From Candidatus Woesearchaeota archaeon (GTDB taxonomy: Archaea; Nanobdellota; Nanobdellia; Woesearchaeales; JACRKL01), in NCBI GenBank assembly GCA_016219835.1, contig JACRKL010000043.1, forward strand, positions 1-32,486: a stretch of 32,486 nucleotides of DNA, given 5' to 3'. The notes under the pieces are model-generated. The model searched no databases, had not been told where the DNA came from, and saw only the letters and a list, made by a program, of their open reading frames with translations. Position 1 is the stretch's first letter. The number at the start of each line of letters is the position of its first letter. The translations under genes were made by a program, and so were the position numbers. Of this stretch, positions 6,783 through 32,486 are shown piece by piece.

Positions 6783-6783
6783 C

Positions 6784-13242: not shown

Positions 13243-14068
13243 AGTGCTTTCCTGCTATCGCCTTGGCAGGCAGAAAAAACAGCTGTCCCATACGAATGAG
13301 GATTGCCGTTGGATAGATCGTACACATAATCTTTACATGGTTGCTGACGGGCTTGGTGGTCATGGTCATGGTGATGAAGCTAGCAGGATTACTCTGGAGT
13401 CTATTGCACACAAGCTTTCCCGGATGTATCTTGGTCTTCGCAATGGCATCTTTCAGACGGAAGACATCCCCGTGGAGATTAGTTCTGCCATGGGTTACGC
13501 TAATCACGAGATCCTCTGTCCATTGGCAACGTACTCGCCGAGCCTCGAGAATTTTGCAACGACCGTTGCGCTGTTATATTGCCATTCCTCTCAAGCATAC
13601 ATCGCCCATGTTGGTGATTCGAGAGTCTATCGTTTTCGTGATGGGTCTCTCAGTTGTCTTACGGCTGATGACCGTGAACTGAAGGATGCTCAACATCCGC
13701 TTGCAGGGTCTTATGTTACCCAATCGCTCGGGAAAGAAGCGATCGAGATACATCAGTCTCAGTTGGAGATTGCCACTGGGGACACGTTCCTCCTCACGAC
13801 TGATGGTTTGACTGATTATGCAACTGATGGAGAAATTGAACAGATTCTCCGAGAGAGTTCGTTCGCTGATGCTCCAAAACTGCTGGTGCATCTGGCAAAT
13901 TATCCTCAGGATGTCGCTGCTGCGTACGCGGATTACTGGCAGATATCCAAGAGCAGCGCAAGGAAGATGCTCGGCGGGAGGGATAACATTACCTTCATAC
14001 TCTTAAAAGCTGGGAGGGAGAACAATGGAAAGGCTGGAATTGTTAAGGTATCTGGATCAGGACTTTAA
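13220..14068 (+). CDS. PP2C-family Ser/Thr protein phosphatase (282 aa)
   Basis: Motifs NEDC...YMVADGLGGHGHGDEAS, AHVGDSRVYRF..G.L..LTADD, LLTTDGLTDY and GGRDNITFILL. The internal ATG at 13220 (GAGGGAA upstream) is preferred over 13127 or 13202. Confidence 0.85.
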   Translation: MPSSKNFEVLSCYRLGRQKKQLSHTNEDCRWIDRTHNLYMVADGLGGHGHGDEASRITLESIAHKLSRMYLGLRNGIFQTEDIPVEISSAMGYANHEILCPLATYSPSLENFATTVALLYCHSSQAYIAHVGDSRVYRFRDGSLSCLTADDRELKDAQHPLAGSYVTQSLGKEAIEIHQSQLEIATGDTFLLTTDGLTDYATDGEIEQILRESSFADAPKLLVHLANYPQDVAAAYADYWQISKSSARKMLGGRDNITFILLKAGRENNGKAGIVKVSGSGL

Positions 14069-15377
14069 GATCATGGATGTAACAAGGGGTGGTGGCTCTG
14101 CTCATATTGTTAAGGCAACGGCACTTCGTGAGTTGTCACAGTTTTCTCTTAAGAAAGGAGTTACGGTGGCACTGAAGTCTCCGAAAAATCCCAATGCAGA
14201 AGCCAGACAACGGTTTAAGATTGAGTATGAAGTGCTCAACCGATTTAAGAATCATCCCCATATTGTCACGCCATATGGGCTTACTCAATGTGGTGAACGT
14301 TATCCTATCTTGGTTATGGAATGGGTGGAACGTTCTCTTGCGAGTTATACTCGAGATCAGAATGCCCACTTCCTGACGCCAGATATTGCCGGAAAATTCC
14401 TGAAGCAGGCAGGTGCTGCACTTTCAGCTCTTCACGACCAAAATGATTCTGTCGGCTATCTCCACAGGGATATCAAACCAGACAACCTTCTTTTGCTTGG
14501 GAATAATCAAACCGTTAAATTGAGTGATTTTGGATGCGTCATGCCTTTAGGATCCGCACCTGAACGGGAGCTGCTTCCTGCGTCAAGTAGCCACGGTCTT
14601 GTTTACTATGGGGCGCCAGAAACTCTTGAGGATGATGAAACAAAGCGGGTCTACAGCAGGGAATCGGACATCTATTCACTGGCTGTATCGATGATTTACC
14701 TGCTGGCAGGAACAACTCCTTTTGAAGGGGATGCTGCCGGAACGAAACGGAAAGAACTGGTTGTGCGGAAGAGGGATAGCACCTATCTTGATGATGCTGT
14801 TGCTTTCCTGCTCTCGGAGAGAATTCCAAAGCACCAGCAGGAAGTTTTACGACAGGCGATTGATGGAACACCAGGAAACCGTCAACCTTCCGTCCAAGCA
14901 TTCCTCGACGACTTTTTTAGGGAGAAAAAGGATCCGCATGGATTGTATTTTGCAGAACGGTACAAGACGATTGAAGAAGTCCTTGGTGACCCAGCACGAA
15001 ATGTTTTTGGAGTAACGCAGGAGATTGGAGTCGATCGCATGCTAACAGCATATGAGGAAATGGTGAAGTATGCAAGTGAACATACCGTTACATCTTCGTT
15101 GGTTGGAGATGCAAAGACGAAGATCACCACACGGGCACAGCAGGATTATAGAATCCTCGAGGGTCACATTGCTGGTGCATCTGCCTTGGAGAATGCAGCT
15201 AAGAAGCATCCAGGTGGGTACACTAATTTTGGACAGGAGTTGGTGCATTACTTTAGGGTCTGGGGTGACGAATTTTCTCCATTTGCCAATCCTCAGCAGA
15301 AGAGAATCCATGCTACGGATGTTCTGGACTTTAGCGATCCAAGATACAAGGAGTTTACATTTGATCCACGGAAGTGA
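14025..15377 (+). CDS. Hanks-type Ser/Thr protein kinase with ~170-aa C-terminal extension (450 aa)
   Basis: Gly-loop TRGGGSAHIV, VALKSPK (catalytic Lys), HRDIKPDN (nt 14463-), LSDFG (nt 14526-) and YYGAPE. GGGAGGGAG RBS 4 nt upstream. It overlaps the PP2C gene by 44 nt. Confidence 0.9.
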   Translation: MERLELLRYLDQDFKIMDVTRGGGSAHIVKATALRELSQFSLKKGVTVALKSPKNPNAEARQRFKIEYEVLNRFKNHPHIVTPYGLTQCGERYPILVMEWVERSLASYTRDQNAHFLTPDIAGKFLKQAGAALSALHDQNDSVGYLHRDIKPDNLLLLGNNQTVKLSDFGCVMPLGSAPERELLPASSSHGLVYYGAPETLEDDETKRVYSRESDIYSLAVSMIYLLAGTTPFEGDAAGTKRKELVVRKRDSTYLDDAVAFLLSERIPKHQQEVLRQAIDGTPGNRQPSVQAFLDDFFREKKDPHGLYFAERYKTIEEVLGDPARNVFGVTQEIGVDRMLTAYEEMVKYASEHTVTSSLVGDAKTKITTRAQQDYRILEGHIAGASALENAAKKHPGGYTNFGQELVHYFRVWGDEFSPFANPQQKRIHATDVLDFSDPRYKEFTFDPRK

Positions 15378-16543: not shown

Positions 16544-18106
16544 ATGACCGACAAACCCCTCGAACAACGGCTGGAAGAAACCTTTCAGCGATTGAAAGAG
16601 CAAGAAGCAGCGGAAGCTGCGAAGGGAACTGAACAGAGTACAGTTGGAGCACCCTATGAAACCAAAGCATCAAATCCTATGGGTCATTCATGGTTCAGAA
16701 AACTAGGGATAGGGATTACCGTTTTAGGGTTGGCTACACTTTGCTATGTGGGGATGCTAAAACCCACCCAATCTACCCTTACCTCAAACGTCTCTACTCC
16801 TGCCCTAGTACAGAAACTGCCTGATGGTGTTACTGCACTCAACTCAGCGTTCTACCAGATTGATTCTGTGATTACTCTTCCGTTAGGTAAACATTTTGTG
16901 GATAAAGATATTTGTGTTGCATCGACCGGGAAGCTTACACTCCTCCCCGGATCTGAATTGTATTTCGGCAAGGATGCAGGAATCTCGTGCAAAGGAAACT
17001 TGGAAGCTATCGGTGATCAACAGCGTCCCATCTTGTTTACTTCGTTAGGCGATTCATGGAAGAATATCGTCCTCACTTCCAACCAACCCTCTAAACTCTC
17101 CTATTGTATCTTCCGGCAGGGCCATGGTCGTGATCATGATGCTTACTTAGACCGACAACCCATGGCTTTCAGTGGTCAAATGAGAGGCGGAGCAATTTTA
17201 ATAGCAAACTCTAAAGCAGGTATTGACCATTGCACATTTGAGAATAACCAAGCGTATGAAGGCGGTGCTATTTTTCTTGATGATGCCAATGCAACAATCT
17301 CTTACTGTAATTTTTTTGATAATTCGGGTAGTACAAGAGGCGGAGGCATTGCAACCATGAACTCAAAGATCAGCATTAACCAGAACGTCTTCTCTAGGAA
17401 TAATAGCAGTTTTGGAGGCGGAGCATGGTTTTTTCGATCGGAAATCATGTTAATCGAAAACCTCTTTGAGGCTAATAACGCTGATGAGGGTGGCGGGTTA
17501 AAGTGTGAAGCAACAGGTGGTGGTATTTGGGATAATACTTTTAGAAGCAATCGGGCAACTCAGCGTGGTGCAGGATTAGACCTTCGTGGAAATTCTCCTG
17601 AAGGTCATAGCTTCCTTATGGAAGGAAATAAGATCCTCTCCAACGTTTGTACGGGGGAGTATTCTCGTGGTGGGGGTGTACATGCTGAGTACTTAGTAAT
17701 GCCGTTAATGAGTTGGAATCATGTTGAGGGAAATAAAGCTGAGTGTGGGGCAGGATTTTCGTTTATGGATAGTTCAGATATTTATCTTTCCCAGAATACA
17801 ATGGAGAACAATACTGCTTCTAACACTGGCGGAGGGATTTGGATGCAGCGCGTTAAGAAGATGTATATGCAAAAAAATCTCATAGGTTATAATACCGCAG
17901 GAAATGGGGTTGGAGGGATATTCTTTGCTGACATGAATTTATCTGGATTGTATACCTATGTCTGCAAAACCACCGCAACAACGGTAGACTACGATTCAAA
18001 GACTAGCGTTGGCATTAACTTAGTAGATCTTGATAAGAACACTATCATAACTGAATGGAAGAAGATGAATCATAATGTTGTTATTGGCAACACTCCTCCT
18101 CCCTAA
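16544..18106 (+). CDS. N-terminally anchored surface protein with right-handed parallel beta-helix (PbH1/Pmp-like) repeats (520 aa)
   Basis: Same N-terminal motif (LEQRLEETFQRLKEQEAAEAA) plus a TM helix. More than 10 repeats of the GGAI/GGGI...F..N type follow (e.g. GGAILIANSKAGIDHCTFENN, GGAIFLDDANATISYCNFFDN, GGGIATMNSKISINQNVFSRN). Confidence 0.8.
   Translation: MTDKPLEQRLEETFQRLKEQEAAEAAKGTEQSTVGAPYETKASNPMGHSWFRKLGIGITVLGLATLCYVGMLKPTQSTLTSNVSTPALVQKLPDGVTALNSAFYQIDSVITLPLGKHFVDKDICVASTGKLTLLPGSELYFGKDAGISCKGNLEAIGDQQRPILFTSLGDSWKNIVLTSNQPSKLSYCIFRQGHGRDHDAYLDRQPMAFSGQMRGGAILIANSKAGIDHCTFENNQAYEGGAIFLDDANATISYCNFFDNSGSTRGGGIATMNSKISINQNVFSRNNSSFGGGAWFFRSEIMLIENLFEANNADEGGGLKCEATGGGIWDNTFRSNRATQRGAGLDLRGNSPEGHSFLMEGNKILSNVCTGEYSRGGGVHAEYLVMPLMSWNHVEGNKAECGAGFSFMDSSDIYLSQNTMENNTASNTGGGIWMQRVKKMYMQKNLIGYNTAGNGVGGIFFADMNLSGLYTYVCKTTATTVDYDSKTSVGINLVDLDKNTIITEWKKMNHNVVIGNTPPP
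16566..16620 (+). repeat. 55-nt near-identical segment, copy 2 (5' end of CDS 16544)
   Basis: See copy 1. The hairpin is retained with one G-U wobble (ctggaag-aaac-ctttcag, 16571-16588). Confidence 0.85.
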
Positions 18107-18122: not shown

Positions 18123-18947
18123 ATGACTCTTGAATCCCAACTCAAACATGCTTGGATCCGCATGATCTACCATGACGGCATCAGTGATCTTATATGTGAA
18201 TCGCTGTTTGCAATGCCGGGCTGGGATGATGTCTTTGCGAAGCTGGAAGATCCCTCGCTTCTTTCATTATGGTCTTCTTATATGTCCGCATGGCTTGGCA
18301 ATCCATCAGATCGACAATCGCTCCAAGAGGATCCCGCCTATGCACCTGCTGTTTCCCTCCGGAATCAATATCGCCCTTATCTTCTCTCCATCAAAGAACT
18401 CTTGGACAGCCATGGTGAAGATCATGGCTACTTGCGTGCTTCTTTCTTGAAAGGGCTTGCAGATGCAAACACCACATCAGCGGATGATCCGCTTCCGATA
18501 TTGGTGAGGGAATATCTCGATCTCTATCAGCATACCGAGATGGTATGGTCAGCTCACTCTCCCTCAACAAATAGTTCTGTTGGTCTCTCGTTTAGGGAAT
18601 TTTACCGGGAGAAGAGAGAACGAATGAAGAGCATGCCGTGGGATTTCACCGTCCAGACGCCGTATGGGATCTTCCAACGTCAAGTGAATGATTCCTCGCT
18701 TCAGGTATCCCTCTCAGGAAAGCCCGTTGTTGAAGCCGTTGGTTACCTGATGGCATCCAGTTCTCCACATGATCTGTCGATTCCATTCTTGTATGATCTT
18801 GCTCATGGAAACGCGTTTTACGCGTCTTGTGAAGGCAGCAGCATCGACCGTTCCGTGCCGCTCTTCAACTTCCTGCTCGGCAGGTCAGAGAAAAATGGCA
18901 GGATGGTTTGTGCGATTGAATTGATAACAGGTGAGCACCATGGGTGA
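18123..18947 (+). CDS. Hypothetical protein; C-terminal region resembles the two downstream beta-grasp-like proteins (274 aa)
   Basis: GGTGAT RBS upstream. The C-terminus ...LFNFLLGRSEKNGRMVCAIELITGEHHG parallels ...THFLKIGTSDPYLLCEIRIY and ...PFLLAKHF..KPYRLCEMRMM of the next two products. Confidence 0.6.
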   Translation: MTLESQLKHAWIRMIYHDGISDLICESLFAMPGWDDVFAKLEDPSLLSLWSSYMSAWLGNPSDRQSLQEDPAYAPAVSLRNQYRPYLLSIKELLDSHGEDHGYLRASFLKGLADANTTSADDPLPILVREYLDLYQHTEMVWSAHSPSTNSSVGLSFREFYREKRERMKSMPWDFTVQTPYGIFQRQVNDSSLQVSLSGKPVVEAVGYLMASSSPHDLSIPFLYDLAHGNAFYASCEGSSIDRSVPLFNFLLGRSEKNGRMVCAIELITGEHHG

Positions 18948-19326
18948 ACAAGACTTTTTGCTCTTGCCAGTACAGATTGAGCTGTATTACCAGACTCAGA
19001 TCTATGGCGCTTATTTCCGTCCGGATGAGGAGCAGAAAAAACTGCTGAGAGATATGACCTTGAATGAAGCTATCGCATTCAGCTGGCATCATGCATCATG
19101 CGCCAGAGCAATTCCTGAGCTCAAGGTATTAGTTTCCTATCCTATCGAAGCTCGTGTCTTCCATCATACCTATCGGAAAATGTTCGATGGTTCCGGCACG
19201 TGTCTTGTTGATGAGCTTGCCAGAAGATTTGTTGATCCAACTCATTTCCTGAAGATAGGGACGTCTGATCCTTATCTTCTTTGCGAGATTCGCATCTATC
19301 ATGAAAACAGGAGGGATGTACCATGA
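18940..19326 (+). CDS. Beta-grasp-like protein, paralogue of the 19323 product, no di-glycine (128 aa)
   Basis: ATGGGTGA start/stop overlap with the upstream gene. It aligns with the next product over the whole domain: PVQIELYYQ/PLVIRLYPE, MTLNEAIAFSW/ITIADAVRFAM, LKVLVSY/IKLVIGS, PYLLCEIRIY/PYRLCEMRMM. Confidence 0.55.
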   Translation: MGEQDFLLLPVQIELYYQTQIYGAYFRPDEEQKKLLRDMTLNEAIAFSWHHASCARAIPELKVLVSYPIEARVFHHTYRKMFDGSGTCLVDELARRFVDPTHFLKIGTSDPYLLCEIRIYHENRRDVP

Positions 19327-19763
19327 GTGAAGAAACCATAGATTTAATGACGCAGCCGCTGGTGATACGATTGTATCCGGAAAGTAATCTTACGGGCATT
19401 GAATCAAAGTGCCAAGATGATCGGAGAAAAGGGCTAATAACCATTGCAGACGCTGTTCGATTTGCGATGGAGAATTACCAGAAGACTAGTTATTCGGCAA
19501 CGAATTATAATTCCTTGAAGAAACTCGTAGACAAGCCCAGCGGTATTAAATTAGTTATTGGTTCATCGACCTATGGCTTTAAGGATCTCCATGGTACGAC
19601 TATTTCGACTCCGCCTTTTCTGTTAGCGAAGCATTTCTCTCCTCAGGTCGATCGAGACTTAAAGCCCTATCGTCTTTGTGAAATGAGAATGATGGATGTA
19701 GGAGGAGATGTATTAGGAGGGTTGTATGGATCAGACTTATCTGACCGAATTGGCTCGAAGTAA
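19323..19763 (+). CDS. Candidate ubiquitin-like modifier precursor (146 aa)
   Basis: ATGA overlap and AGGAGGG RBS. The strand-helix-strand pattern is compatible with a beta-grasp fold. The terminal strand YRLCEMRMMDV is followed by G127-G128 (nt 19701-19706) and an 18-aa tail containing a second LGG. It lies directly upstream of the E2-like/JAB/E1 genes. Confidence 0.5.
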   Translation: MSEETIDLMTQPLVIRLYPESNLTGIESKCQDDRRKGLITIADAVRFAMENYQKTSYSATNYNSLKKLVDKPSGIKLVIGSSTYGFKDLHGTTISTPPFLLAKHFSPQVDRDLKPYRLCEMRMMDVGGDVLGGLYGSDLSDRIGSK

Positions 19764-20916
19764 TCTGGTGCTTATCGCACTGGATCGAATCTTTGAAGTA
19801 AGCATGAAGGGATCTCATCATCCCTTTTGGTGCAACTTCTCAGGTCAATACTGTGGATTGAGGGAGTCGGAGATGATCCGCTACTTTGAGAACCAGCTGA
19901 TGACTCCTTTGCTTTTCAAGGATTCTTCCGTTCCCCAGATAATCGAAACGCTTGGTCAGCTTAACGGACGCATAGCTAACGCACAAAAAAAGATGGAACG
20001 GAATGCTCTTGAAGCATTTATTGAGAATTTCCTGAATGACTGGAGCATTGGTGGAAGGCTCAAAAAGCAACGGAACACTGATCAGCAACCGATGGAGATT
20101 CCTTCTCTTGATGCATACTCATTCCACGAAGGAGATGGCACAGATTATGTGCTCCAGCGGTTGCTTCCTTCTCCGGGAGCGCTTATAGCAAGTAAGGATG
20201 TTTTCCATTTGGTCCCTTATGATGGCGGAAATACTCGTGTGAATATGGGCGATCAGTCTTTCTCTCTACGATACCATACCTCGTTAGCAGAACTCGAGAA
20301 ATCCTACACCCGTGAGCTTTCAAAACATTGCTCACATAAACAAACCATCTTGATAAATCAGTACCAGTCCATTGCACAATCTCTTGAACGGATGATTACG
20401 GAGATTGAAGCATCTAGTGTTCCTGCAGAAAATGCGAGGGGCGAGGTTGGCTGGTTCAAGGAAGACGGCAATTACTATCTGTACATTGTAAAGGATAATT
20501 TCACACTGGAAGAGGAGGGGATCGTTTGCAGATTCCCTTCTTGCAAGTTAGGGGTTCGGTTGATCTTGACTGGAAAAACGATCAGTTATGATTCTAATTC
20601 AAGTACTGGGGCAACACGTATATTCTTTTCTCGCAGTATTAAAGATGGCAAAGAAGTCGGTGATATGCAGAGTCTCAAGAATGGAGTATATAAACATCCA
20701 GCAACTACTACTAACGGGAGCGTTCCTTACCCCTACTTATGCGTAAGCGGCACCAATCTACCTAAACCCTCCGAAACTCTTTCATCTGCTGCATGCCTAC
20801 GAACAGTACTCTCAAAACTCCATCTGGTCATTGAGCATGGGTATCATGGAGGAACAGTGCACGTATATCGTCATCTCAGTGACTCTTCATTTGAACCGTT
20901 CAAGGTGAGGCCATGA
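19726..20916 (+). CDS. Hypothetical protein; possible E2 (UBC-fold)-like C-terminal domain (396 aa)
   Basis: GGAGGG RBS 5 nt upstream. In residues ~215-375, a helix, four strand-like segments, then YKHP-x13-LC(339)VSG and a following helix (LSSAACLRTVLSKLHLVIE) resemble the E2 HPN...Cys active-site layout. Its position between the Ubl and JAB/E1 genes supports the call. The CDS is confident; the function is tentative. Confidence 0.4.
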   Translation: MDQTYLTELARSNLVLIALDRIFEVSMKGSHHPFWCNFSGQYCGLRESEMIRYFENQLMTPLLFKDSSVPQIIETLGQLNGRIANAQKKMERNALEAFIENFLNDWSIGGRLKKQRNTDQQPMEIPSLDAYSFHEGDGTDYVLQRLLPSPGALIASKDVFHLVPYDGGNTRVNMGDQSFSLRYHTSLAELEKSYTRELSKHCSHKQTILINQYQSIAQSLERMITEIEASSVPAENARGEVGWFKEDGNYYLYIVKDNFTLEEEGIVCRFPSCKLGVRLILTGKTISYDSNSSTGATRIFFSRSIKDGKEVGDMQSLKNGVYKHPATTTNGSVPYPYLCVSGTNLPKPSETLSSAACLRTVLSKLHLVIEHGYHGGTVHVYRHLSDSSFEPFKVRP

Positions 20917-22943
20917 GGACTCTCCATAATCTGAGACAGCCGATCCATGGTGAAGAAATCAACGTAGCAACTACCCCTATGGAGAAACTAATGACGATTG
21001 CTGAGATCATGGACTTTCTGGAGTTCCGCGTTATTTCCTTGTCTTATCCTGGGCCTTATGAACGCGTCATTCAGGATTTTTATATCCCGTATCAGAAAGT
21101 GACCGGGGCATCTGCTGATCACGATGATCTTGATGTCATTGAGGATTATTCCCTTCTGCGCAACAACGGGTTTCGTATCCTTGGCATCGCACACGGTCAT
21201 GGTAAATTTCAACCATTCCACTCTGCAAAAGATGACGAGGCAATCGAAAAGGTATTATTACGTTCGTGGGATCACCAAAAACAGCTGAACCACATTTATT
21301 TTAGTCTCGCCAATGGACTTGAAGAGATGGATGAGCAACATCTCTCGATTACCGGGTTTAATGAAATGGACTTTACCCTAATGATGGATTGGTCGCGGCA
21401 GGCTACAAATAAGACATTCTGTACAGAGGAAGTAACTAAGATCAAGGAAAATCTACGGGGAAGGACATTGAAGAGTCTTCGTGGTGAAGTCTCTAGTCTG
21501 GTTGTCAACGGTACTGCAAGGGATATCTATGCGATGAAACGCATTCGCGAGGATCATTTCATCTTCTTTCCAGATGACAAAGATATGTATCGTGAGATCC
21601 AGAACCAATCTCGTGCTCAATTTGTTCGTGAGGGCAATAGTGTCCGATACAGCCTTGAGACTGCAGTTGTGCAGAGGGATGATATTCAGCTGGATGGATT
21701 TCAAGTAGATCTTCTCGTTGAAGAATTACGGGAGAAGGTGCAGGTCTGTGGCAATCGCGTTCCGGAGGCATTACGGAAGTCATATGCACTATATGGTCGA
21801 GAACAGGCGTATGCTCCAGATAGAAGTCTTGAGCGTTGGGGGTATCATATCCCGGTTATTCAGAAATCGGCGTTCGAGCAGCCGATTATTGAACTGCCAG
21901 TCATTGCACCGCCAAGAACCGATGGACTGGAAGATCACCTTGTTGCACCAGAGTTTCGTTCATTAGACGATGGAACTCTCCATCAACCGACTACTGATGG
22001 AGATAATATCCTGGTTTCAGAACCCCATGAACAGAACGTAGACGTTTCATCTCTCAAACCGCTAGCGACCGATGAGAATCTTCCTGCCATTGCTGTTCCG
22101 TTAGAAGTGGCTGAATGCAAAGCACCAGTGGTAGTGCATATTCCTATTTATGCTCCGCCTGGTTCCGAAATCCCTATCGAAGTTCCTATCCGGGTAGTAT
22201 CACCAACTGCTCATGCAGAGGTATTGCATCCTGCAACTCCTGCGAATACAACTCTAGATGGTAATCTCCATACGGATCTGGAATTATTCAGTCAATACAC
22301 TGAAGAGATTCATGGGAAACCGACCATTGAAGCGATCATCGGCAAACCAAACATGGCATCTCCTGAACCAGATCTTTTGCCAGAGAATTCTGTTGAGCTT
22401 TCACCTCTAGTTGTTGCTCCATCCCCTTTTGTTCCTGCACATTCTATTGCTCAAGCTACCACTGCTCCGGAAGCAGCTCCTGTTCCAAGAGTCTATGCTA
22501 TGATCCAATGCGATCCAGAAGATCGGCATGCGGATGTTGTTCGTTGTTATGAGGAGTTATTCATTCAACAGGATGACTATGTTTTACGTTCAAGTTTACT
22601 TCATAACCTTCAATCAATGTATGGCGAAGTACAAAGAGATTATCCTTCGATGAGAGTTCTGTTAGATCCGTTAGAGGGGCTCATTGAGCGTGTCTCTTCC
22701 AAACTCTCCCAAGCCAAGACATTTCAGCATTCCATCAAAGATCGTGCATCAGAGAAAGAGCGACTCCATGGCTTTGGGAAATTAACTTCATCTGACTTTC
22801 AGGAGCTGTTGCGCCTTCGTAATGGATTCTGCCAGTTAGGTCACTATGATCGAGCAGCAGATTTGCAGAAACTAGTGGTGGGAATTCAGAACCATGAAGG
22901 TATTTACCCCTTAGTGCATGCCGGAGCGGATAAGCATGGTTGA
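20913..22943 (+). CDS. JAB/MPN+ (JAMM) metalloprotease domain protein with long Pro-rich and helical C-terminal extension (676 aa)
   Basis: E37, then ~57 aa, then H94-G-H96-x7-S104-x2-D107 (ILGIAHGHGKFQPFHSAKDD, nt 21192-21233), an exact HxHx7Sx2D JAMM signature. ATGA overlap with the upstream gene. Confidence 0.85.
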   Translation: MRTLHNLRQPIHGEEINVATTPMEKLMTIAEIMDFLEFRVISLSYPGPYERVIQDFYIPYQKVTGASADHDDLDVIEDYSLLRNNGFRILGIAHGHGKFQPFHSAKDDEAIEKVLLRSWDHQKQLNHIYFSLANGLEEMDEQHLSITGFNEMDFTLMMDWSRQATNKTFCTEEVTKIKENLRGRTLKSLRGEVSSLVVNGTARDIYAMKRIREDHFIFFPDDKDMYREIQNQSRAQFVREGNSVRYSLETAVVQRDDIQLDGFQVDLLVEELREKVQVCGNRVPEALRKSYALYGREQAYAPDRSLERWGYHIPVIQKSAFEQPIIELPVIAPPRTDGLEDHLVAPEFRSLDDGTLHQPTTDGDNILVSEPHEQNVDVSSLKPLATDENLPAIAVPLEVAECKAPVVVHIPIYAPPGSEIPIEVPIRVVSPTAHAEVLHPATPANTTLDGNLHTDLELFSQYTEEIHGKPTIEAIIGKPNMASPEPDLLPENSVELSPLVVAPSPFVPAHSIAQATTAPEAAPVPRVYAMIQCDPEDRHADVVRCYEELFIQQDDYVLRSSLLHNLQSMYGEVQRDYPSMRVLLDPLEGLIERVSSKLSQAKTFQHSIKDRASEKERLHGFGKLTSSDFQELLRLRNGFCQLGHYDRAADLQKLVVGIQNHEGIYPLVHAGADKHG

Positions 22944-24447
22944 TTTCAGTCGGCAGGAAGTCATCTGGGGGAAAGCAGGTCAGGAAGTTCTTGCATCCAC
23001 CAATCTTGTCGTTCTTGGGGCAGAGAATCTCGGCAGGGAAATCGTGAAGTCTGCTGCAATTCTCGGTATCGGGGAAGTTGGCAAAGGGAAAATTCATGTC
23101 GCTTCCAATTATCGTGCTACTGCTGCTGATATGTTCCTAGATCTCCCATTTGAAGAGGGCAGTTTAGTCGTCCGAAGCCTTCCTTCGATGATCTCCCGTC
23201 TGAATCCTACTACGTCAATCATTCCGTTTCATGGTGATCCAACAGTTCATTACCTTTCCCATCTAGGCACCATTGATGGTATCATTTCCACCGTTAATGA
23301 TCCTCGTATACAGGAGTTGGTATTGGAGTATGCTTCATCCAAGAAAATTCCTCTCTTCCTGCTTTCAACTGATCTTTGTAAAGGGACGTTGTCTCCCGGG
23401 ATTGACCGTATAGCTGGTTATGATGGTAGTATCCAAGGAACTATCGTAAGCAATATCTTCGCTGGCGTAACTCTGGAAGAATGCCGGAAACAATTATTTC
23501 TGAAGAACCAACGTAAATTTAAGGACACTCGTGTGATGCTGAGGGATGGAACCATTCAAGAATATTTTAAGGTTATTGGTGATGATATCCGTCTTGACCG
23601 TGCGTTCACGTATTCCATCAATGGTGATCGCATGGGTCAAGGGTCGGAATGGATGCTTGGTGAGGGCGACCTTTCAGGGAAGAAGATTATGATCTTAGGT
23701 GGCGGTGCAATCGGCAATTATGTTGCTGATATCCTTGCTCGGTTTTTCCCTTCTCGCTTGGACGTTGTTGATTTTGATGTTTATGAAGAACACAATCTTA
23801 ACCGACAGCCGCTTGCGTATGGTCAGATTGGACGAAAAAAAAGCGAGGTTCTTGCTGAACGAATCCGAACGATCAGCCGGGGGAAAACTGCATCTCAGGC
23901 ATTCTTTGCCAAGATTGAAGAATCCAGCTCCAGCAAGGAAGCATATCGGTCTATTGGCCGTTCATGGCTCGAGTTACATCCTTATGACCTGCTGGTAGGA
24001 TGCTTTGACCGATTTGACGTCCGGAAGTTTGTTCATGAATGTGCTCTCACTTTACAGACGCCCTATGCGGATTTAGGTTCTTCTCCCCAAGGTGGCAGGG
24101 TTAATCTCTATGTTCCGGGAAAGACTCGGTGCCTTGATTGCAGTTACGGCATTCATCAGGTCTATGCAAATGATGTGATTCTGAGGACCAAACATGAAGC
24201 CGCCAGGGCTCGTGTTGTTGCAGGTAACCCTTCAGGGATAGATCATCTTCACTGCCGTGATGTAGAAGGAAGTGTGAACATGAGTAACCAGATCGTTGCC
24301 GGACTCTTTGCCGGTGAAATGAGAAAAGTATTCTCCTCCGATTATGGGAATATCTGCGACTTCTTGAAATACCGAGGGGAAAGTGGCATGAAGATTCAGT
24401 GGGAACCAGATACTAAACCTTGTTCTTGTTCGGGGAGGAAATCATGA
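22936..24447 (+). CDS. ThiF/MoeB/E1-like Ubl-activating enzyme with tandem inactive plus active adenylation domains (503 aa)
   Basis: The C-terminal half carries MILGGGAIGNYVADIL (nt 23698-), DVVDFDVYEEHNLNRQ, then CLDC and later CSC (Zn-site-like). The N-terminal half has the same fold pattern (FSRQEVIWGKAGQEVL..NLVVLGAENLG...) but degenerate nucleotide-binding motifs. ATGGTTGA overlap with the JAB gene; ATG at 22918 is an alternative start. Confidence 0.85.
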   Translation: MVDFSRQEVIWGKAGQEVLASTNLVVLGAENLGREIVKSAAILGIGEVGKGKIHVASNYRATAADMFLDLPFEEGSLVVRSLPSMISRLNPTTSIIPFHGDPTVHYLSHLGTIDGIISTVNDPRIQELVLEYASSKKIPLFLLSTDLCKGTLSPGIDRIAGYDGSIQGTIVSNIFAGVTLEECRKQLFLKNQRKFKDTRVMLRDGTIQEYFKVIGDDIRLDRAFTYSINGDRMGQGSEWMLGEGDLSGKKIMILGGGAIGNYVADILARFFPSRLDVVDFDVYEEHNLNRQPLAYGQIGRKKSEVLAERIRTISRGKTASQAFFAKIEESSSSKEAYRSIGRSWLELHPYDLLVGCFDRFDVRKFVHECALTLQTPYADLGSSPQGGRVNLYVPGKTRCLDCSYGIHQVYANDVILRTKHEAARARVVAGNPSGIDHLHCRDVEGSVNMSNQIVAGLFAGEMRKVFSSDYGNICDFLKYRGESGMKIQWEPDTKPCSCSGRKS

Positions 24448-26960
24448 TTCCCTCATCTGCCCGTAAGCACCTTCATGACATCTTCATGAAGGATCATGCA
24501 GAGGTTGAAGAAGTCATCGCAGCTTACCATGCAAAGGATCTTGACCGGCTTTCATTTAGTCTTAAAGCAATTCGTCCATGCACTGAACCAGTCTCTTTGG
24601 AAGGCATTACAGCATCTCTTCTTTATGGTCGCATCAAGAATCATGCATCATCTTCAGCAGGCATGCTGCAACGGCTTGATTTTACTGAAGGTTTGCTCTA
24701 TCAACATGTTGTGGATTATCTTCCCTGGGCAACAACTGCAGGCAAAGTTCCTGCAAAGGATGCCATTATGTTAGAAGCTTTGCTCTTTGACGCTGCGGCA
24801 TCTTCCTATGCTGCATTTATCAAAGAAGCTGAACGCATCCTGCAAGAGGGAGGATTGCATGATGCACGTTCATTCCCCCTTGACGATGCGGTGAGTTGGT
24901 GCTATACCTTTGCACAACGGCTATCTTCTGCAAAGAAAGAATCCGATCATCGCAAACCAACGACAAAGCAGCAGCAAACGTATAGAACAAATCCAACGGT
25001 TGAGCTTGCTGCTGATCTGTTCATTGGACTCTTGACAACGCAGGAAGCAGTATCGCTGGTTGGATCCCTTCCCGAAAAACAGGACGCGAAACGACTGCTG
25101 TTGTTTGATGCTCTGTTTTCGTATCTCCGGCAAGAAGCTCCACAGATATACTCCTATATTGATCACACCCTGCGGAATGCAGGGTTGTATTCTTCAGCAG
25201 ATCCAGCTTCCATTCGAAAAAACGTACCACTCTTTGTCCCTTCACTTCTCTCTTCACTTCAAGAGTCTCTGCATTCTCCGCATTTGCCCGCAAGAGAACT
25301 TCAACTTCTTGCACCACTGCAAGTTATGCATTCTGCACTGGTTGACTTGCAGCAAAAAACCAAGAAGGAGATCGAGAGCATGTATAGTGATATTTCTTCT
25401 GGAAAGATCCCCTATGAAGACATCATTGCCATGCCTCAGAAAAGATCTATAGACTTATTTATTTCAGCATATGCGCAGGGAGATATACATCTTGCCATGA
25501 CCGGGTCTGCTCTCTACTGCCTGCTTGTTGAGGGCACCTCGGATGATCCTCAGTTATGCGATGGTCTTGTCAAAAGTGCAACGGACTATTGCAGGAGAAC
25601 TGCACAAACTGTCCCTATATTATTCAATGGAAGCATATCCGAGGAATCTGTTGGCAAACTCGCCAACCATTTGGAAATGCTTTCTTCGATGAACAAATTT
25701 ACTGCTCTTAGCAGCGTGAGTGATGCACATGCTGAGGTTTTTCTTAAGGAACGTCATGCTGCAAACGTTGCGGTTGATGAACAAAAGAAGAAGATTATCG
25801 ATTTGATCTTCCCAACTCACCATGCAGCAGAGGGATACTCTAGGCGGGGATGTCACAACTATGCTGACTGGAAGATGCAGAATGACTTCATGAGCAATAC
25901 GTTGCCATTCCTGAAAAGCCCATCGGTGGTTTCCACGTATGCGAGACTCATCGACGATGAGGTTATTGAATTTGAACCCGGTGCTTGGCTCATTCCTCCC
26001 ATGACCGATCTTGAAACAAAGATCGCCAACCTTGAAGTTGTAGCTCAAGAGATCAACGATAACCTCTCCGCCTATGCCTCTTCCTCTGCAGATCGGCGCC
26101 ATCATCTGCAGGAGACTGAGCAAGGTATCACCGCTCTCCTCAAGCAGCTTCTCACCGTTTCATACGGTGATGCCTCTCGAGTTTGTGATGTTCAAAAGAT
26201 CCTGCAGGATGGTCTTGCTTACCTCCATTCCTGCGTGTCTGATGAAGGCTCACCCGAGTACGAGTCAGCAAAGAATGCGATCTATGCAGGTGTTATCCTG
26301 GCTGATCAGAGAAAGAACGAAATCCTGTCTGAAGCTGCGGTAGAAGTGCAACGCATCAGAGAGTCACTCATTCCTTACGGTCTCTATAGTCAGGAGGCAG
26401 ATGCATTGCGTGAAGAACGAATGCTGCTCGATGACATTGCATCTGCGTATGCTGCACTTGATGCATCATCGGGACAACAAGAACTGCTTTCTACAACCAT
26501 CTCGCAAGTGGAATCGCTCAGCGAACTGATCCAGAAGACCGTAAGCCAGAGATCAGACCTGCTCATGGAGGTACAACTGCATCTCAAGCCGATAGCTACA
26601 AGAATCAAAAGCCTTGCGAAACACAAGCAGAATTATGCCACTCTTTCCCAGATTGCATACCAGTACCGTAAGTTGGTTGAAGTAGAATCTAGAGTTCCAA
26701 GATGTTTGGAGCACGACCAGCAGCTTCGTCAGACCTATAACCAGATCATCGAGCAGATTGCAGATACGCGGCAAACGGCAGAACAGCGGCTTGGAGAAAT
26801 GGAAGCGAGAGTTTCTTCATCTCTTCAATCGCTTCGAGGCGGACTTGAGGAACTGCATGGAAATTTTGAACTGGGTTCATACATGACGCTGCGTGATTCT
26901 TTTTCTGAACAGCAAAAACTCTATGGGGTTCTACAGCAGGCACGGGGTGGTCATTCATGA
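24444..26960 (+). CDS. Large alpha-helical hypothetical protein (838 aa)
   Basis: GGGGAGGAA RBS and ATGA overlap with the E1 stop. Long helix-rich ORF with no TM helix and no motif recognised. Confidence 0.7.
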   Translation: MIPSSARKHLHDIFMKDHAEVEEVIAAYHAKDLDRLSFSLKAIRPCTEPVSLEGITASLLYGRIKNHASSSAGMLQRLDFTEGLLYQHVVDYLPWATTAGKVPAKDAIMLEALLFDAAASSYAAFIKEAERILQEGGLHDARSFPLDDAVSWCYTFAQRLSSAKKESDHRKPTTKQQQTYRTNPTVELAADLFIGLLTTQEAVSLVGSLPEKQDAKRLLLFDALFSYLRQEAPQIYSYIDHTLRNAGLYSSADPASIRKNVPLFVPSLLSSLQESLHSPHLPARELQLLAPLQVMHSALVDLQQKTKKEIESMYSDISSGKIPYEDIIAMPQKRSIDLFISAYAQGDIHLAMTGSALYCLLVEGTSDDPQLCDGLVKSATDYCRRTAQTVPILFNGSISEESVGKLANHLEMLSSMNKFTALSSVSDAHAEVFLKERHAANVAVDEQKKKIIDLIFPTHHAAEGYSRRGCHNYADWKMQNDFMSNTLPFLKSPSVVSTYARLIDDEVIEFEPGAWLIPPMTDLETKIANLEVVAQEINDNLSAYASSSADRRHHLQETEQGITALLKQLLTVSYGDASRVCDVQKILQDGLAYLHSCVSDEGSPEYESAKNAIYAGVILADQRKNEILSEAAVEVQRIRESLIPYGLYSQEADALREERMLLDDIASAYAALDASSGQQELLSTTISQVESLSELIQKTVSQRSDLLMEVQLHLKPIATRIKSLAKHKQNYATLSQIAYQYRKLVEVESRVPRCLEHDQQLRQTYNQIIEQIADTRQTAEQRLGEMEARVSSSLQSLRGGLEELHGNFELGSYMTLRDSFSEQQKLYGVLQQARGGHS

Positions 26961-29900
26961 CAACGCTGGAAGAACAGTTCAGCCAGCTGGAAGCGATGAT
27001 CCAAGAATCTGATAATTTCGCAAGGCATAGGCTTACTGAAGAGATGAAGAGTCTCTTGGAATTTCCTAGTGGACCGTTGTATAGCCAGGACATTCCTGCT
27101 ATTCGTGCGCAGATGAAAAAAGCAAGCTCTCTGGAACGGTGCGCAAGAAAGTTATCGGTTGAGCATGCTTCCTTGGGATCATGGAAATCCTCGATGAGCC
27201 AGAAGGTGGGATCCTTTCAGCAGGAATTCAAGAACCAAGAATCTGCTCTTGCATCGACGGTAAAGACCCTTCATGAACTCGAGGAAACAGTTAATGCAGT
27301 ACCGGATGCAACCCGCCCCATGCATGCCCTTCATTGGATGGATGCTGTTGAGGCATTGCAGCATCAGAAGGAAGATAAGCTTAGTGTATATGCTCCATGG
27401 AAAGATGACGTGCACCTCCGAGTGCGTATTGAACTCATAGAACAACGGCTTGCAGATGCCAGAAAAATCTACGATGCCCATCGGCTGGAGCTTGCGTCTT
27501 CTTCTCGTGCATATCTCACGACTGCAACAACGGTTTCTGGTTCCTTGACCTTGGACGCTGTTGCGAAGCAGCAAGCCCTTCAGAAGAAGGCTGCGCCATA
27601 TCGTGAGTTGCTGCAACGAACTTCCCCTGCGGACAATGAGGGGGGAGATTATGCATCACTCCTCTCTGCATATGTTACAGGGATACATGCTCGTATCATT
27701 GAGGAACTTGACGGACTGTCGCAACGATGTAACCTAACTTATATCCCTCATCAGGAACTGCCTGACTTCAAAGAACAAATTACTCGGGTAAAAGAACTCC
27801 GCAACATTTCACGCCTGCTTTCCATAGACGGGCTGCCCTTTAAGGAAATGATCCATCACGCCAAAACGCTCATCTCTTCATCAGCCAGAGAACGCAAACG
27901 CCGCGCTCAGGTGATCGCATCAATAGACGATGCTGCACAGCAGGTTTTTACGTCTGTTGCATCAGACGACTGGCGTTCCATACTTGCTTCTTATCACACG
28001 CTGCTGGGCATGAAGTACCCTGATGAAACATGGAAGCTGGATGATACACTTGCTCGAGATGTTGAACGATATGTAACAACGCGGAGAGATCATGCCTCGC
28101 AATTGCTTTCCATGCTGTGGGAGTCAGCCAGAGCATATCATCAGCATCAGAAGGATGCGATCGTTAGTGTTGAGTCTCTGCTTACTCGCCCGATCATTGC
28201 AGAGTACGTCTCTGCATTTTCTAACGAAAAGAAACGATGGTTGGAGAACGGCAAAGATCTTGGTGAGTTATTGCAGCATCTCCCTCCATCTGGTGAAAAC
28301 CTTTCCCCGTCATGGGGTCAGCAGGAGATCGCAGCGTATGATCTTCGTCTTGCAAAACTTCCGGAAGAACTGGATTTTCTTGACCAGCAGATTGATGATG
28401 TGCACTGGTATCACCAGCGCGAGCAGCTTGATGGCATAGCACAGCGGGTTACCGAAATCAAAGCAGTCTATACGCTTCTTAGCCTCCCTGAAGAGATGCC
28501 TGCTTCACTGCTCGAAAAAGTAACGGAGGCCACATCACTCATTGCATCTGCCTATGACACCCATCAGCGTGCCTTAACAACGTTAGCACAGGAGCTTGAT
28601 GTGATGCAGAGAGAAACCGCTGACGTAGACGGAGCATCACTCTATCCGCTGTTTTCTCGTTTGGAGAACATCTGGGAAAGACTTTCCCCGCTCTATGCAG
28701 AAGAAGCCCTTACCGAGCAGATCAATCATACTGCTGCACATGCTGATACTATCGCTGGAACTCTTGATGGAAAAGTCAAGGCGATGCTTCTTAGCGAGTA
28801 TGCCCGACCGATAAAACAACATGCAGGGAGCATCAGAAAAAATGCAGGAGCAACATCAGCCGACCATGATACGCTTACGGTTGGTGTTCAGGCGCTTGAG
28901 GAGCTGATACCTGCGCTTGCTCAACTCAAACATCCGCGGTATGATCTAATTATTAACCATCTTCTTTATCATACTGAGCAAGCCGTTGCTCTCGGCAGAA
29001 AAAAAATAGCAGAGTATGACGTGCTCTTTGCAGATCGAAAACAGATGCTGGAAACAGAAGCGGTTCAGCTCGAGCAGCTGTATTTCCGCGCTGCTGCTAT
29101 TGCTTCGAATGACTTCTTTGCCAACGCCGCTTTTTTAAAAGAATGGTTGGCCTTGGGCGAAGCATTTTTCTCTCGGCTGTTGGGTGAGACGCCGGCATGG
29201 AAGAAAGATCCTGCCTTTGTGAATGACACACATCGGATTGAAGAGGCAAGTGAGATGCTCGGTTCTGTGATAACCGGTATAGGAAATACGCTTGAAACTG
29301 ATGCTCGTGCCTCGCATGAGGAGTTTTCCCGTCTTGTTCAGTTGCCGTGTTTGACCTCTTCAGATACATGGGCACTCCAGTTTGCGAAAGGAGTTTATTG
29401 TTTACTGGTTGATGCTCTCAAGTCCATTGAGCCAACAGATCTTGGTGTGGAATCCTCAGCGGCGAGATTTATGGACGACCATCTCACCAGCATCGTCAAA
29501 GAGTCTCCTTCCCTTCTCATTGCTGCCGATGCTGCCATTGCTTCATACGATCTTGCTGTTGCAGCTGATAGGAAAAAGATTGCGGACATCCAGCAGAAAT
29601 TATCGCAGCTCTATTTTCCAACAATTGAAGAGAAAAAATACCGTGATCCTGCAGATATTTCCTTGCCGAAGAGAGGGATAACTCTGGCTACGTATGGTAC
29701 CACTTTACAAAATCTCCTTGAGCAATATGCTTCTTTGTCGCCTAGAAAAGAAGATGATGCTCTGCGTGATGAACTCAGGGCTATAGATGAGCAGATGTTC
29801 CGCCAGATAAAATCCTATCATCAGATGGTGAAGCCGGTGATCAATCAGTTGCGAGTGGAATATCAGGCACAGGAGAAAGCTGCAACTGCTTTGCAAGAGC

Positions 29901-30040
29901 AAGGTATTGGAATCATGCATCCACTCCGCAATAGGCAGTACCAATCTCTGCAGCGGGAAGTTGACGAAAAGAAAGCATACCTGCAACCCCTGACTACGAT
30001 CTTAGGAAATCTGCGCCGACTGTCGGAGGTACTTTCATGA
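26957..30040 (+). CDS. Very large alpha-helical / coiled-coil hypothetical protein (1027 aa)
   Basis: ATGA overlap with the upstream gene. Uninterrupted 3.1-kb ORF with helix-rich, E/L/A/Q-rich composition. No motif recognised. Confidence 0.7.
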   Translation: MTTLEEQFSQLEAMIQESDNFARHRLTEEMKSLLEFPSGPLYSQDIPAIRAQMKKASSLERCARKLSVEHASLGSWKSSMSQKVGSFQQEFKNQESALASTVKTLHELEETVNAVPDATRPMHALHWMDAVEALQHQKEDKLSVYAPWKDDVHLRVRIELIEQRLADARKIYDAHRLELASSSRAYLTTATTVSGSLTLDAVAKQQALQKKAAPYRELLQRTSPADNEGGDYASLLSAYVTGIHARIIEELDGLSQRCNLTYIPHQELPDFKEQITRVKELRNISRLLSIDGLPFKEMIHHAKTLISSSARERKRRAQVIASIDDAAQQVFTSVASDDWRSILASYHTLLGMKYPDETWKLDDTLARDVERYVTTRRDHASQLLSMLWESARAYHQHQKDAIVSVESLLTRPIIAEYVSAFSNEKKRWLENGKDLGELLQHLPPSGENLSPSWGQQEIAAYDLRLAKLPEELDFLDQQIDDVHWYHQREQLDGIAQRVTEIKAVYTLLSLPEEMPASLLEKVTEATSLIASAYDTHQRALTTLAQELDVMQRETADVDGASLYPLFSRLENIWERLSPLYAEEALTEQINHTAAHADTIAGTLDGKVKAMLLSEYARPIKQHAGSIRKNAGATSADHDTLTVGVQALEELIPALAQLKHPRYDLIINHLLYHTEQAVALGRKKIAEYDVLFADRKQMLETEAVQLEQLYFRAAAIASNDFFANAAFLKEWLALGEAFFSRLLGETPAWKKDPAFVNDTHRIEEASEMLGSVITGIGNTLETDARASHEEFSRLVQLPCLTSSDTWALQFAKGVYCLLVDALKSIEPTDLGVESSAARFMDDHLTSIVKESPSLLIAADAAIASYDLAVAADRKKIADIQQKLSQLYFPTIEEKKYRDPADISLPKRGITLATYGTTLQNLLEQYASLSPRKEDDALRDELRAIDEQMFRQIKSYHQMVKPVINQLRVEYQAQEKAATALQEQGIGIMHPLRNRQYQSLQREVDEKKAYLQPLTTILGNLRRLSEVLS

Positions 30041-31491: not shown

Positions 31492-32369
31492 ACCCTGAAG
31501 ATAGAAAACAAAAGCTGTTGCAGGATCTTGATGAAACACTGGGATCACCAGCAGAGGATCATGGTGGTTACCAGATACCACCTCCTCATCGACGGATATC
31601 ATCGTTCAAACGTACGCTTATCCATGGTGCATGCGTTGGGCTTGCCTCCGGAATATTGGTTGTTGCGTCGAATTATCTGGAGACGCATGATTCGTTCTTT
31701 CCACCTACACCGACTCCTGCTGTTGCTGCGACTCTCACTCCTACATCTACCCCAACTTCATATCCTACACTCACACCTACATCAACTCCAACCATGACAT
31801 CAACGCCGACTCAATATCCTACTTCAACATCCACGCCTACTCCAACTGGGACATCGACACCGATAAGAACTCCTTATCCCGCTCAAACACCCGACCTTTC
31901 TTCTATAACCCGTCTAACAGCTAGAAAAGAGGTGGCTAATGCACTTTTTCATAGCAGTTATCAGGATCTTCTTTTTGAGCCACAGAAACTAACTTTTCTG
32001 AGGTTTGATGCAAGCCTTGCTGCACTCAGAATGAGAGGATATGATCGTCATGCAAGGCCTAGTGAAGAATTCGGATTTATCATCGCAGGGATGGAAGGAA
32101 GACTCTCTGCTGCAGATACCAAAATTGCCGGGGGCATGGTTTTTGATGGTAGAGAATGGCTGAGTATGGCTTATGAAGTCACACAGTCAGGAGGGAAGCA
32201 GTGGCTTACGGTGTACGTTGATCCGACGAACCTTCAGTATAGAATTCTTGAATACCAATGGAACGGCCCTCCTCAGTATTCTGCGTCTAAAAGATATGAG
32301 ATCACCGGTTTACCTCTCAAGAGAATGGTAGACTTGGATAAATTTCCGGTAGTGTTAGTAAATGACTGA
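31488..32369 (+). CDS. N-terminally anchored surface protein: PT linker plus unknown C-terminal domain (293 aa)
   Basis: ATGA overlap. The N-terminal motif RKQKLLQDLDETLG is paralogous to the 30037 product. TM (LIHGACVGLASGILVVA), PT linker (nt ~31701-31892), then a ~150-aa C-terminal domain of unknown type. The last 22 nt lie in the right ITR. Confidence 0.7.
   Translation: MNPEDRKQKLLQDLDETLGSPAEDHGGYQIPPPHRRISSFKRTLIHGACVGLASGILVVASNYLETHDSFFPPTPTPAVAATLTPTSTPTSYPTLTPTSTPTMTSTPTQYPTSTSTPTPTGTSTPIRTPYPAQTPDLSSITRLTARKEVANALFHSSYQDLLFEPQKLTFLRFDASLAALRMRGYDRHARPSEEFGFIIAGMEGRLSAADTKIAGGMVFDGREWLSMAYEVTQSGGKQWLTVYVDPTNLQYRILEYQWNGPPQYSASKRYEITGLPLKRMVDLDKFPVVLVND
31701..31892 (+). repeat. 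Pro/Thr-rich linker-coding low-complexity region (~64 aa)
   Basis: Encodes [64 protein letters not shown]. Confidence 0.85.
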
Positions 32370-32486
32370 CAGAAAGATTTTTATTCTTTGAAATATTTGG
32401 TGTGCGTATGGCACCAAAACTCATCTGCACAAGCTGCAACAGCAGCAATATCGTTATGAATGGACTTACTTCTGCCAAGAAGCAGA
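32348..32486. repeat. Right terminal inverted repeat (ITR)
   Basis: Reverse complement of 1-139 (see left ITR). It overlaps the last 22 nt, including the stop codon, of CDS 31488..32369. Confidence 0.95.
32378..32389 (+). terminator. Oligo-T tract downstream of the last CDS
   Basis: TTTTTATTCTTT begins 9 nt after the stop at 32369. Oligo-T tracts act as archaeal intrinsic terminators. It lies inside the ITR. Confidence 0.25.

Follow-up and report, generated by a model that had tools for sequence, protein, structure and literature searches.

A compact single-chain E1 with a very probable inactive-plus-active adenylation architecture in a DPANN-type archaeon

The window analysed here is the whole of contig JACRKL010000043.1 (contig C23; 32,486 nucleotides, or 32.5 kb), from the 1.34-Mb, 92%-complete genome bin of a Candidatus Woesearchaeota archaeon, and its subject is a gene that very probably encodes a compact single-chain E1 enzyme activating a ubiquitin-like protein (Ubl), in which an N-terminal ThiF-fold domain serves as inactive adenylation domain (IAD). 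This gene is the last of an operon that also encodes small proteins, a 396-amino-acid (396-aa) protein with an HPx...C motif and a JAMM peptidase. A first-pass annotation of the DNA, made from the sequence alone, had placed an open reading frame (ORF) at 22936-24447 on the forward strand and had quoted a series of motifs from it. The ORF is real, encoding 503 aa from that start or 509 aa from an upstream ATG at 22918 (22918-24447, forward), and on recomputing the coordinates each of the motifs was found in it: GAENLG at residues 34-39, GGGAIG at 261-266, DFDVYEEHNLNRQ at 285-297, K308 inside KKSEVLAERI, D364, CLDC at 405-408, Cys446 in HLHCRD and CSC at 502-504. Residues are numbered throughout from 22918, so that six must be subtracted to count from 22936; the latter start corresponds to Met7 (MVDFSRQ) and agrees better with the N-termini of relatives, and the recorded window protein (P0001) is the 503-aa form. 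The features of the gene are as follows.

22936..24447, forward strand: E1 gene, 503 aa (ORF list)
22939..23517, forward strand: very probable IAD, residues 8-200 (hhalign, PDB profile matches, predicted local distance difference test (pLDDT), column counts)
22951..22953, forward strand: Arg12 of the SRQ motif, candidate arginine finger (Arg in 77/82 family members)
23596..24432, forward strand: active adenylation domain (AAD), residues 227-505 (Pfam ThiF, E 9e-28)
23698..23715, forward strand: GGGAIG nucleotide-binding loop, with G261, G263 and G266 (column counts)
23770..23808, forward strand: DFDVYEEHNLNRQ ATP/Mg motif, with D285, D287, N293 and R296 (invariant, 82/82)
23839-23841, forward strand: K308, completing the ATP/Mg site (invariant, 82/82)
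24007-24009, forward strand: D364, completing the ATP/Mg site (invariant, 82/82)
24130..24141, forward strand: CLDC at the start of the crossover insertion, predicted to provide the first half of the structural zinc site
24142..24276, forward strand: short crossover insertion, residues 409-453 (secondary structure of the model, pLDDT)
24253..24255, forward strand: Cys446 (HLHCRD), candidate catalytic thioester cysteine (invariant, 82/82)
24421..24429, forward strand: CSC, second half of the predicted zinc site (C502 71/82, C504 60/82)

The C-terminal half is a complete ThiF/E1 adenylation domain, as had been proposed at first pass, and its catalytic residues are invariant across the 82 aligned family members (435-575 aa) on which the conservation counts are based. 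In the nucleotide-binding loop, G261 and G263 are present in 82/82 members and G266 in 80/82, while the CLDC half of the predicted zinc site is kept at C405 in 73/82 and at C408 in 67/82. The crossover insertion that follows CLDC consists, in the AlphaFold model described below, of one long helix (412-436) and then a flexible loop of lower confidence that bears Cys446. The cysteine of HLHCRD had already been singled out in the annotation as a catalytic candidate, and its invariance in 82/82 members makes Cys446 the candidate thioester cysteine of the enzyme; the modelled helix and loop amount to a minimal mobile cysteine element. The chain stops 5 residues past CSC, and therefore no ubiquitin-fold domain (UFD) is present.

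The N-terminal half is the more demanding part of the architecture. When the Pfam ThiF hidden Markov model was run on each half separately, as the annotation had suggested, the C-half was matched outright, while the N-half was matched over residues 11-54 with E 2.9e-5 and 23.8 bits, which lies under the 28.1-bit cut-off. From the single sequence its likeness to ThiF is thus weak, and the case has to be made from the family. To this end the 82-sequence alignment (A5) was split into halves and the two half-profiles were compared by hhalign, which aligned them over 172 columns with a probability of 99.7% (E 1.3e-25); the two halves of the protein are homologous to each other. An N-half profile built from 16 sequences matched, in the PDB, Uba1 at 1e-27, MoeB at 4e-22, ThiF at 1e-21, NAE1 at 9e-17 and SAE1 at 2e-15 (in bits, the N-half profile scores 82 against MoeB and 80 against ThiF). 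The catalytic subunits UBA3 and SAE2 were matched at just 1e-7, probably because their alignments begin at profile position 22-29, past the N-terminal R-Q-x3-W-G helix. Together with the structure model and its fold matches, these results identify the N-half as a ThiF-fold domain and not as an unrelated Rossmann domain.

The loss of the ATP-binding motifs from this half, claimed in the annotation, is borne out by the alignment of the two halves and by the column counts. The nucleotide loop is degraded to GAENLG and the D-x-D/NLNRQ motif is gone; when the active-site residues of the C-half are mapped onto the N-half by hhalign, D285 corresponds to Ser63, D287 to Tyr65, K308 to Val84 and D364 to Asn127, while R296 falls on a gap, so that all five ATP/Mg positions are replaced in the window protein. 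In 76/82 family members Asn stands where the Mg-binding Asp would be, and the N-half has neither a zinc site nor a cysteine insertion. What the N-half does carry is Arg12, which on sequence grounds is a candidate arginine finger reaching from the IAD to the single active site and whose counterpart in BilD is Arg9 (PMC10557695). It could be argued instead that both halves bind nucleotide, giving a two-site enzyme, or that the N-half acts as a regulatory nucleotide sensor, since among the relatives G-x-G is kept in the N-half of 35/82, the first Asp in 61/82 and a basic residue (Lys or Arg) at the K308-equivalent position in 58/82. The replacement of all five positions here, the nearly uniform Asn at the Mg position, the missing counterpart of the NLNRQ arginine and the lack of a zinc site or cysteine insertion nevertheless make either version highly improbable for the window protein.

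With four sequences AlphaFold gave a poor model (pLDDT 56.7, the C-half below 50), which was superseded by one made with the 82-sequence alignment (pLDDT 93.1, predicted template modelling score (pTM) 0.94). In blocks of 10 residues, pLDDT is 93-98 across residues 11-240 and falls to 82, 64 and 87 in the blocks covering 431-460, the region of the Cys446 loop. All of the best 50 Foldseek matches that the PDB yields for this model are single-chain E1s of eukaryotes, namely Uba1, UBA6 and UBA7 (E 4e-20 to 8e-18, TM-score (TMq) 0.53-0.61, about 590 alignment columns). As a control, in a viral library, a giant-virus Uba1 was alone in matching both halves (573 columns, TMq 0.53), and phage single-domain ThiF proteins matched one half (about 260 columns, TMq about 0.3). 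The order of the domains is also that of the eukaryotic enzymes, because the whole-protein profile aligns the N-half to IAD residues 17-163 of Drosophila Uba1 (38 bits) and the C-half to AAD residues 412-574 (98.5 bits), and it aligns to the IAD and AAD of human UBA6 in the same order. A confident two-domain model thus matches Uba1, UBA6 and UBA7 over both halves, and profiles, model and conservation agree on the overall picture drawn at first pass, a eukaryote-like inactive and active adenylation domain in one chain.

A two-domain ORF might arise as an assembly or frameshift artefact joining neighbouring ThiF genes, an explanation without any evidence in its favour, which is refuted by the relatives and can be dismissed almost with certainty. 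Both halves form a single ORF in 16/16 independent loci examined, and the linker region is conserved and modelled with high confidence; since the one-chain form recurs in 16 loci, in 82 proteins from many assemblies and in at least 215 clusters, fusion by sequencing error is excluded, and the two halves are not separate genes in any relative examined. The 215 clusters come from an exhaustive search in which 1.84 billion cluster representatives were compared with the profile: 1,421 proteins matched at E<=1e-10, of which 215 clusters also passed E<=1e-30, and the best 150 matches are mostly 430-575 aa long and aligned over both halves. A word-indexed homologue search had returned three relatives at 30-38% identity, and a search for related loci with a 4-sequence alignment had found one true relative; the apparent rarity is due to the word-indexed method, and extreme rarity of the family is ruled out by the exhaustive counts. 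The E1 therefore belongs to a sizeable archaeal family with hundreds of sequence clusters, present in archaea with small genomes. A six-frame search of 401 genomes sampled from the host phylum detected two-domain ORFs in roughly 40 of them, several of these ORFs on large chromosomal contigs (169 kb to 1.16 Mb), and no description of this archaeal two-domain family was found in the literature searched.

Among known enzymes, the eukaryotic E1s (Uba1/UBA6/UBA7, NAE1-UBA3 and SAE1-SAE2) are the best matches of the archaeal protein in both sequence profile and fold. Like it, they pair one inactive with one active ThiF-type domain, arranged in that order and with a lone ATP site; the inactive domain bears a conserved R-Q-x3-W/L-G motif at its N-terminus, and the catalytic Cys (here the candidate Cys446) comes past the crossover CxxC. 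A structural zinc site, in the archaeal protein a predicted one, is also reported for the SUMO and NEDD8 E1s. With the whole-protein profile, Uba1 scores 143 bits, UBA3 126 and SAE2 124, followed by MoeB at 116 and ThiF at 111, both of which are reached through the C-half region of the profile, and by BubCD at 88 and Cap2 at 75. The archaeal E1, however, is about half as large as the eukaryotic canonical enzymes, resides in an archaeal host and is encoded in an operon. Compared with Uba1, its IAD carries no insert, neither the first half-domain of the catalytic cysteine (FCCH) nor the four-helix insertion; the second (SCCH) is replaced by just a 45-residue helix and loop with Cys446; and the C-terminal UFD is missing. 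Without FCCH, SCCH and UFD, it would represent a minimal version of the eukaryote-like design.

A different possibility is that the protein adenylates without conjugating to proteins, as MccB and PaaA do in peptide modification or MoeB, ThiF and UbaA in sulphur-carrier activation, the N-half being a scaffold. MccB is indeed the best single-sequence match in the PDB (E 2.4e-9), and the NCBIfam ThiF and MoeB models are matched, all of them far under their cut-offs. When the family profile is used, by contrast, eukaryotic E1s rank above MccB, MoeB and ThiF; Cys446 is invariant, and genes for a JAMM peptidase and an invariant-Cys protein adjoin. MoeB, ThiF and UbaA share the ThiF fold and the adenylation chemistry but are single-domain symmetric homodimers of about 250 aa with two active sites, whereas the dimer of the archaeal E1 is internal and asymmetric. 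The same genome moreover encodes a separate ThiF-type protein (contig C41, 847-1251; 299-aa open frame) that is matched in its ThiF core alone and is presumably the housekeeping MoeB/UbaA-type enzyme, and in the domain tree described below archaeal single-domain ThiF proteins cluster with Escherichia coli MoeB, apart from both halves. A non-conjugating enzyme is on these grounds very unlikely.

The nearest prokaryotic analogue known, with a comparable architecture, is bacterial BilD, which has been described as comprising an IAD, an AAD, a cysteine domain of about 80 residues and a zinc site of the Cys4 kind; its IAD contributes Arg9, and a UFD is missing (Chambers et al., PMC10557695). The annotation had ascribed a fused pseudo-dimer to the Bil-type E1 as well, which proves accurate, BilD having an inactive, an active and a cysteine domain (PMC10557695). 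In a 2024 review BilD is the sole prokaryotic E1 with an inactive/active design, and archaeal E1s are MoeB/UbaA-like enzymes without a catalytic cysteine domain (PMC11354881). The protein could accordingly be a BilD orthologue and its operon a Bil (BilABCD) antiviral system. The BilD of Ensifer aridi (Type II) is likewise a single prokaryotic chain of similar length (535 aa), with IAD, AAD, cysteine-bearing insertion, a 2+2 Cys4 zinc site, no UFD and an arginine from the IAD N-terminus, and the Bil operon order of Ubl, E2, JAB and E1 would correspond to the order small protein, HPx...C protein, JAMM and E1 seen here, were the small protein a Ubl and the HPx...C protein an E2. In sequence, however, the two are far apart. 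The comparison covered the Type II protein of E. aridi, its sequence taken from PMC10557695; with profile and database size set as for the PDB search, E. aridi BilD reaches 16.5 bits (E 0.027), all of it from the nucleotide loop, against 143 bits for Uba1; hhalign against BilD gives a probability of 38%, and the N-half profile misses BilD entirely. The BilD IAD is so diverged that Pfam holds it as 'Prok-E2_C' (PF14459), a family absent from those matched by the 82 archaeal members, whereas the archaeal IAD is plainly ThiF-like. The cysteine domain of BilD has about 80 aa as opposed to about 45 aa in the archaeal insertion, the Bil E2 has 204 aa and a CEHH pattern whereas the archaeal E2-like protein has about 400 aa, HPx before its Cys and belongs to a different family, and the hosts are bacterial and archaeal, respectively. 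Judged against Type II BilD, the score and the lack of PF14459 thus make the archaeal E1 a separate family and orthology with BilD quite unlikely.

Two further prokaryotic systems, BubCD and Cap2, resemble the archaeal E1 in having an E1 adenylation domain in a conjugation operon, but neither has an IAD. BubCD is a homodimeric peptidase-E1 fusion without a catalytic cysteine, and the Bub pathway uses oxyester intermediates; the archaeal E1, by contrast, has an invariant Cys (82/82), an E2-like partner with its own Cys (14/14) and no fused peptidase. Cap2 is an E2-E1 fusion that homodimerises through its adenylation domains (PMC10557695), whereas the archaeal N-half has a ThiF fold and not that of an E2; PADLOC matches of the E1 are solely to Cap2-type models, by way of the ThiF core. 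Judged by sequence, the archaeal E1 appears to stand outside the BilD, MoeB/ThiF, Bub and Cap2 families. By analogy, its single-chain pseudo-dimer would take the place of the MoeB/ThiF homodimer, which mirrors Uba1, UBA6 and UBA7 as well as BilD.

The neighbouring genes of the cassette, all upstream of the E1 gene, are these.

18931..19326, forward strand: paralogue of the 146-aa small protein, 131 aa, lacking a terminal Gly
19323..19763, forward strand: 146-aa small protein ending in ...DVLGG and a 13-residue tail, candidate modifier precursor (family alignment A2)
19726..20916, forward strand: 396-aa probable E2-like carrier, H324-P-A ... Y-L-C339 (motif, neighbourhood)
20913..22943, forward strand: JAMM/MPN+ metallopeptidase, 676 aa, directly upstream and overlapping the E1 start (Prok-JAB, E 7e-4)

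The order small protein, HPx...C protein, JAMM and E1 is conserved in the loci that were fetched. The JAMM motif is complete, with E37, H94-x-H96, S104 and D107 invariant in 4/4 relatives. The 396-aa protein adjoins the E1 in 14/16 loci, and its family keeps P325 and C339 in 14/14 members and a His before the Pro in 12/14, in the form H-P-x ... [YI]-[IL]-C, which is similar to HPN...C, the signature of UBC-type E2s. In the family of the 146-aa protein (alignment A2), x-L-G is found at the matching place in 3/5 members, and in more distant loci GG and a short tail often close the gene that lies upstream of the E2-like one.

From these elements a pathway can be proposed, in which sequence and model support a predicted enzyme working like a minimal canonical E1. 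The JAMM peptidase would cut the 13-residue tail off the 146-aa small protein and so expose ...LGG; the AAD, to whose lone active site the IAD would hand Arg12, would adenylate the exposed C-terminus of the 146-aa protein; and Cys446, which sits next to the predicted Cys4 zinc site on a flexible crossover loop, would accept the modifier as a thioester. The 396-aa HPx...C protein would then take over the modifier on its Cys339 and deliver it to target lysines, and the JAMM peptidase may also undo conjugation.

Several points weigh against this reading. The retention of G-x-G, the first Asp and the basic residue in many N-halves, given above, means that the N-half of some relatives may have residual nucleotide binding. 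Adenylation, thioester formation and the role of Arg12 are deduced from conserved residues, and the geometry of the presumed pseudo-dimer interface from pTM and TM-scores. The 396-aa protein is a probable E2-like carrier by motif and gene neighbourhood, and profile searches with it in Pfam, NCBIfam, PADLOC and the PDB gave no match; hhalign against UBE2D2 does align HP...C and P-[YF]-L-C, with a non-significant E of 0.22, and against BilB it is likewise non-significant (E 0.1). As for the candidate modifier, the terminal Gly of the small protein varies among close relatives, the small proteins had no match in the PDB, and no ubiquitin-like signature was detected in their sequences. Pfam searches with 10 more distant relatives of the 396-aa protein also gave no match, and PADLOC matched neither the JAB nor the E2-like protein.

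Despite these points, the compact single-chain E1 with an inactive and an active domain carries some wider implications. It is not categorically new, since eukaryotes and Bil already provide precedents for both its architecture and its operon logic. It would be, though, a second prokaryotic family with the inactive/active design, sequence-unrelated to BilD, which is the sole one in the literature searched, and its sequence lies much nearer than that of BilD to Uba1, UBA3 and SAE2. The gene further draws attention to an E2-like carrier family, unannotated and about 400 aa in size, with an HPx...C motif, and it makes the origin of the canonical E1s testable through phylogeny and structures of a minimal enzyme of some 500 residues.

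In a tree of 49 domain sequences and 165 columns, the N-halves form one clade (support 100/99) and the C-halves another (97/96), the latter being sister to two eukaryotic AADs (89/79), and single-domain ThiF proteins of the host phylum cluster with E. coli MoeB (95/88), apart from both E1 halves. The centre of the tree is poorly resolved, and in the approximately unbiased test neither a grouping of the N-halves with eukaryotic IADs (p 0.48) nor one of the N-halves with the C-halves, as expected of an independent internal duplication (p 0.26), was rejected. Descent of the archaeal family and the eukaryotic canonical E1s from one ancestral inactive-plus-active E1 is proposed tentatively, and we regard it as rather unlikely at present. 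If true, the pseudo-dimeric design, the His-Pro...Cys carrier and the JAMM peptidase would have existed in archaea before eukaryotes, and the archaeal E1s would be the closest prokaryotic relatives of the Uba1-type enzymes. The inactive half, being still recognisably ThiF-like, may preserve an early stage of the passage from homodimer to pseudo-dimer.

The composition of the cassette varies, as the gene content of two loci indicates: in L023 (976-5351) a two-domain E1 lies between two JAB paralogues without a nearby E2-like gene, and the E2-like gene is absent from L025 too. In two further loci (L001, 5976-6452; L002, 4682-6341) there is a conserved upstream gene with the N-terminal motif LxKEYGxxGAYxEYG, fused to thioredoxin in one L002 copy, of which no counterpart was detected in the window. 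Downstream of the E1, at 24420-30040, lie very large ORFs of 846 and 1027 aa that are taken to encode coiled-coil proteins, one with a weak JetC/MukB-like PADLOC match. Large genes follow the E1 in most relatives without detectable homology to each other, and the 846-aa and 1027-aa proteins were rejected as core parts of the cassette, not being detectably conserved among the related loci. The closest cassette, with an E1 38% identical, is that of locus L028 (CAZXEM010000007.1), a 22.9-kb contig whose bin bears the label 'uncultured Methanosarcinales archaeon'; its ORFs terminate in the same residues as those of the JGI contig L002. This match suggests either that mobile elements carry the cassette from one archaeal lineage to another or that the contig was placed in the wrong bin.

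With respect to the host, the genome bin encodes the archaeal ribosomal protein S8e, which in the same search matched just the four archaeal control genomes, while a search of the bin for small-subunit rRNA gave no match; genomes of the phylum span 0.5-2.1 Mb, and the host is a DPANN-type archaeon. The G+C content and tetranucleotide use of the contig fit the bin. Terminal inverted repeats of 139 bp, at 1-139 and 32348-32486, are 99% complementary, and for this reason the contig looks like a complete linear element. PHROGs searches with ten other ORFs of the window found no capsid, terminase or polymerase, and no protein-primed polymerase was recognised among the ORFs of the element, which may be a plasmid or a virus.

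All large ORFs of the contig lie on one strand except the TrmB gene, and among their products are a protein with an Mrr-like nuclease domain, a pair of AAA+ ATPases, the TrmB regulator, a PP2C phosphatase and a Hanks kinase. Given the kinase, PP2C, AAA+ and Mrr-like neighbours on a linear element, a role of the cassette in conflict or defence is plausible. At 2789-8301, the gene for a protein with an Mrr-type restriction endonuclease domain precedes those for two AAA+/P-loop ATPases, a set reminiscent of a defence island. Three overlapping genes at 11107-15377 encode a 711-aa protein without a Pfam match, a PP2C (E 2e-14) as well as a Hanks-type Ser/Thr kinase (E 3e-32); this trio sits upstream of the conjugation cassette, of which it may be a regulator. 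Immediately upstream of the genes for the small proteins, at 16544-18106, is a gene for a 520-aa protein that combines a NosD-like beta-helix with a Chlamydia PMP-type repeat and in which an apparent N-terminal membrane segment can be seen by eye.

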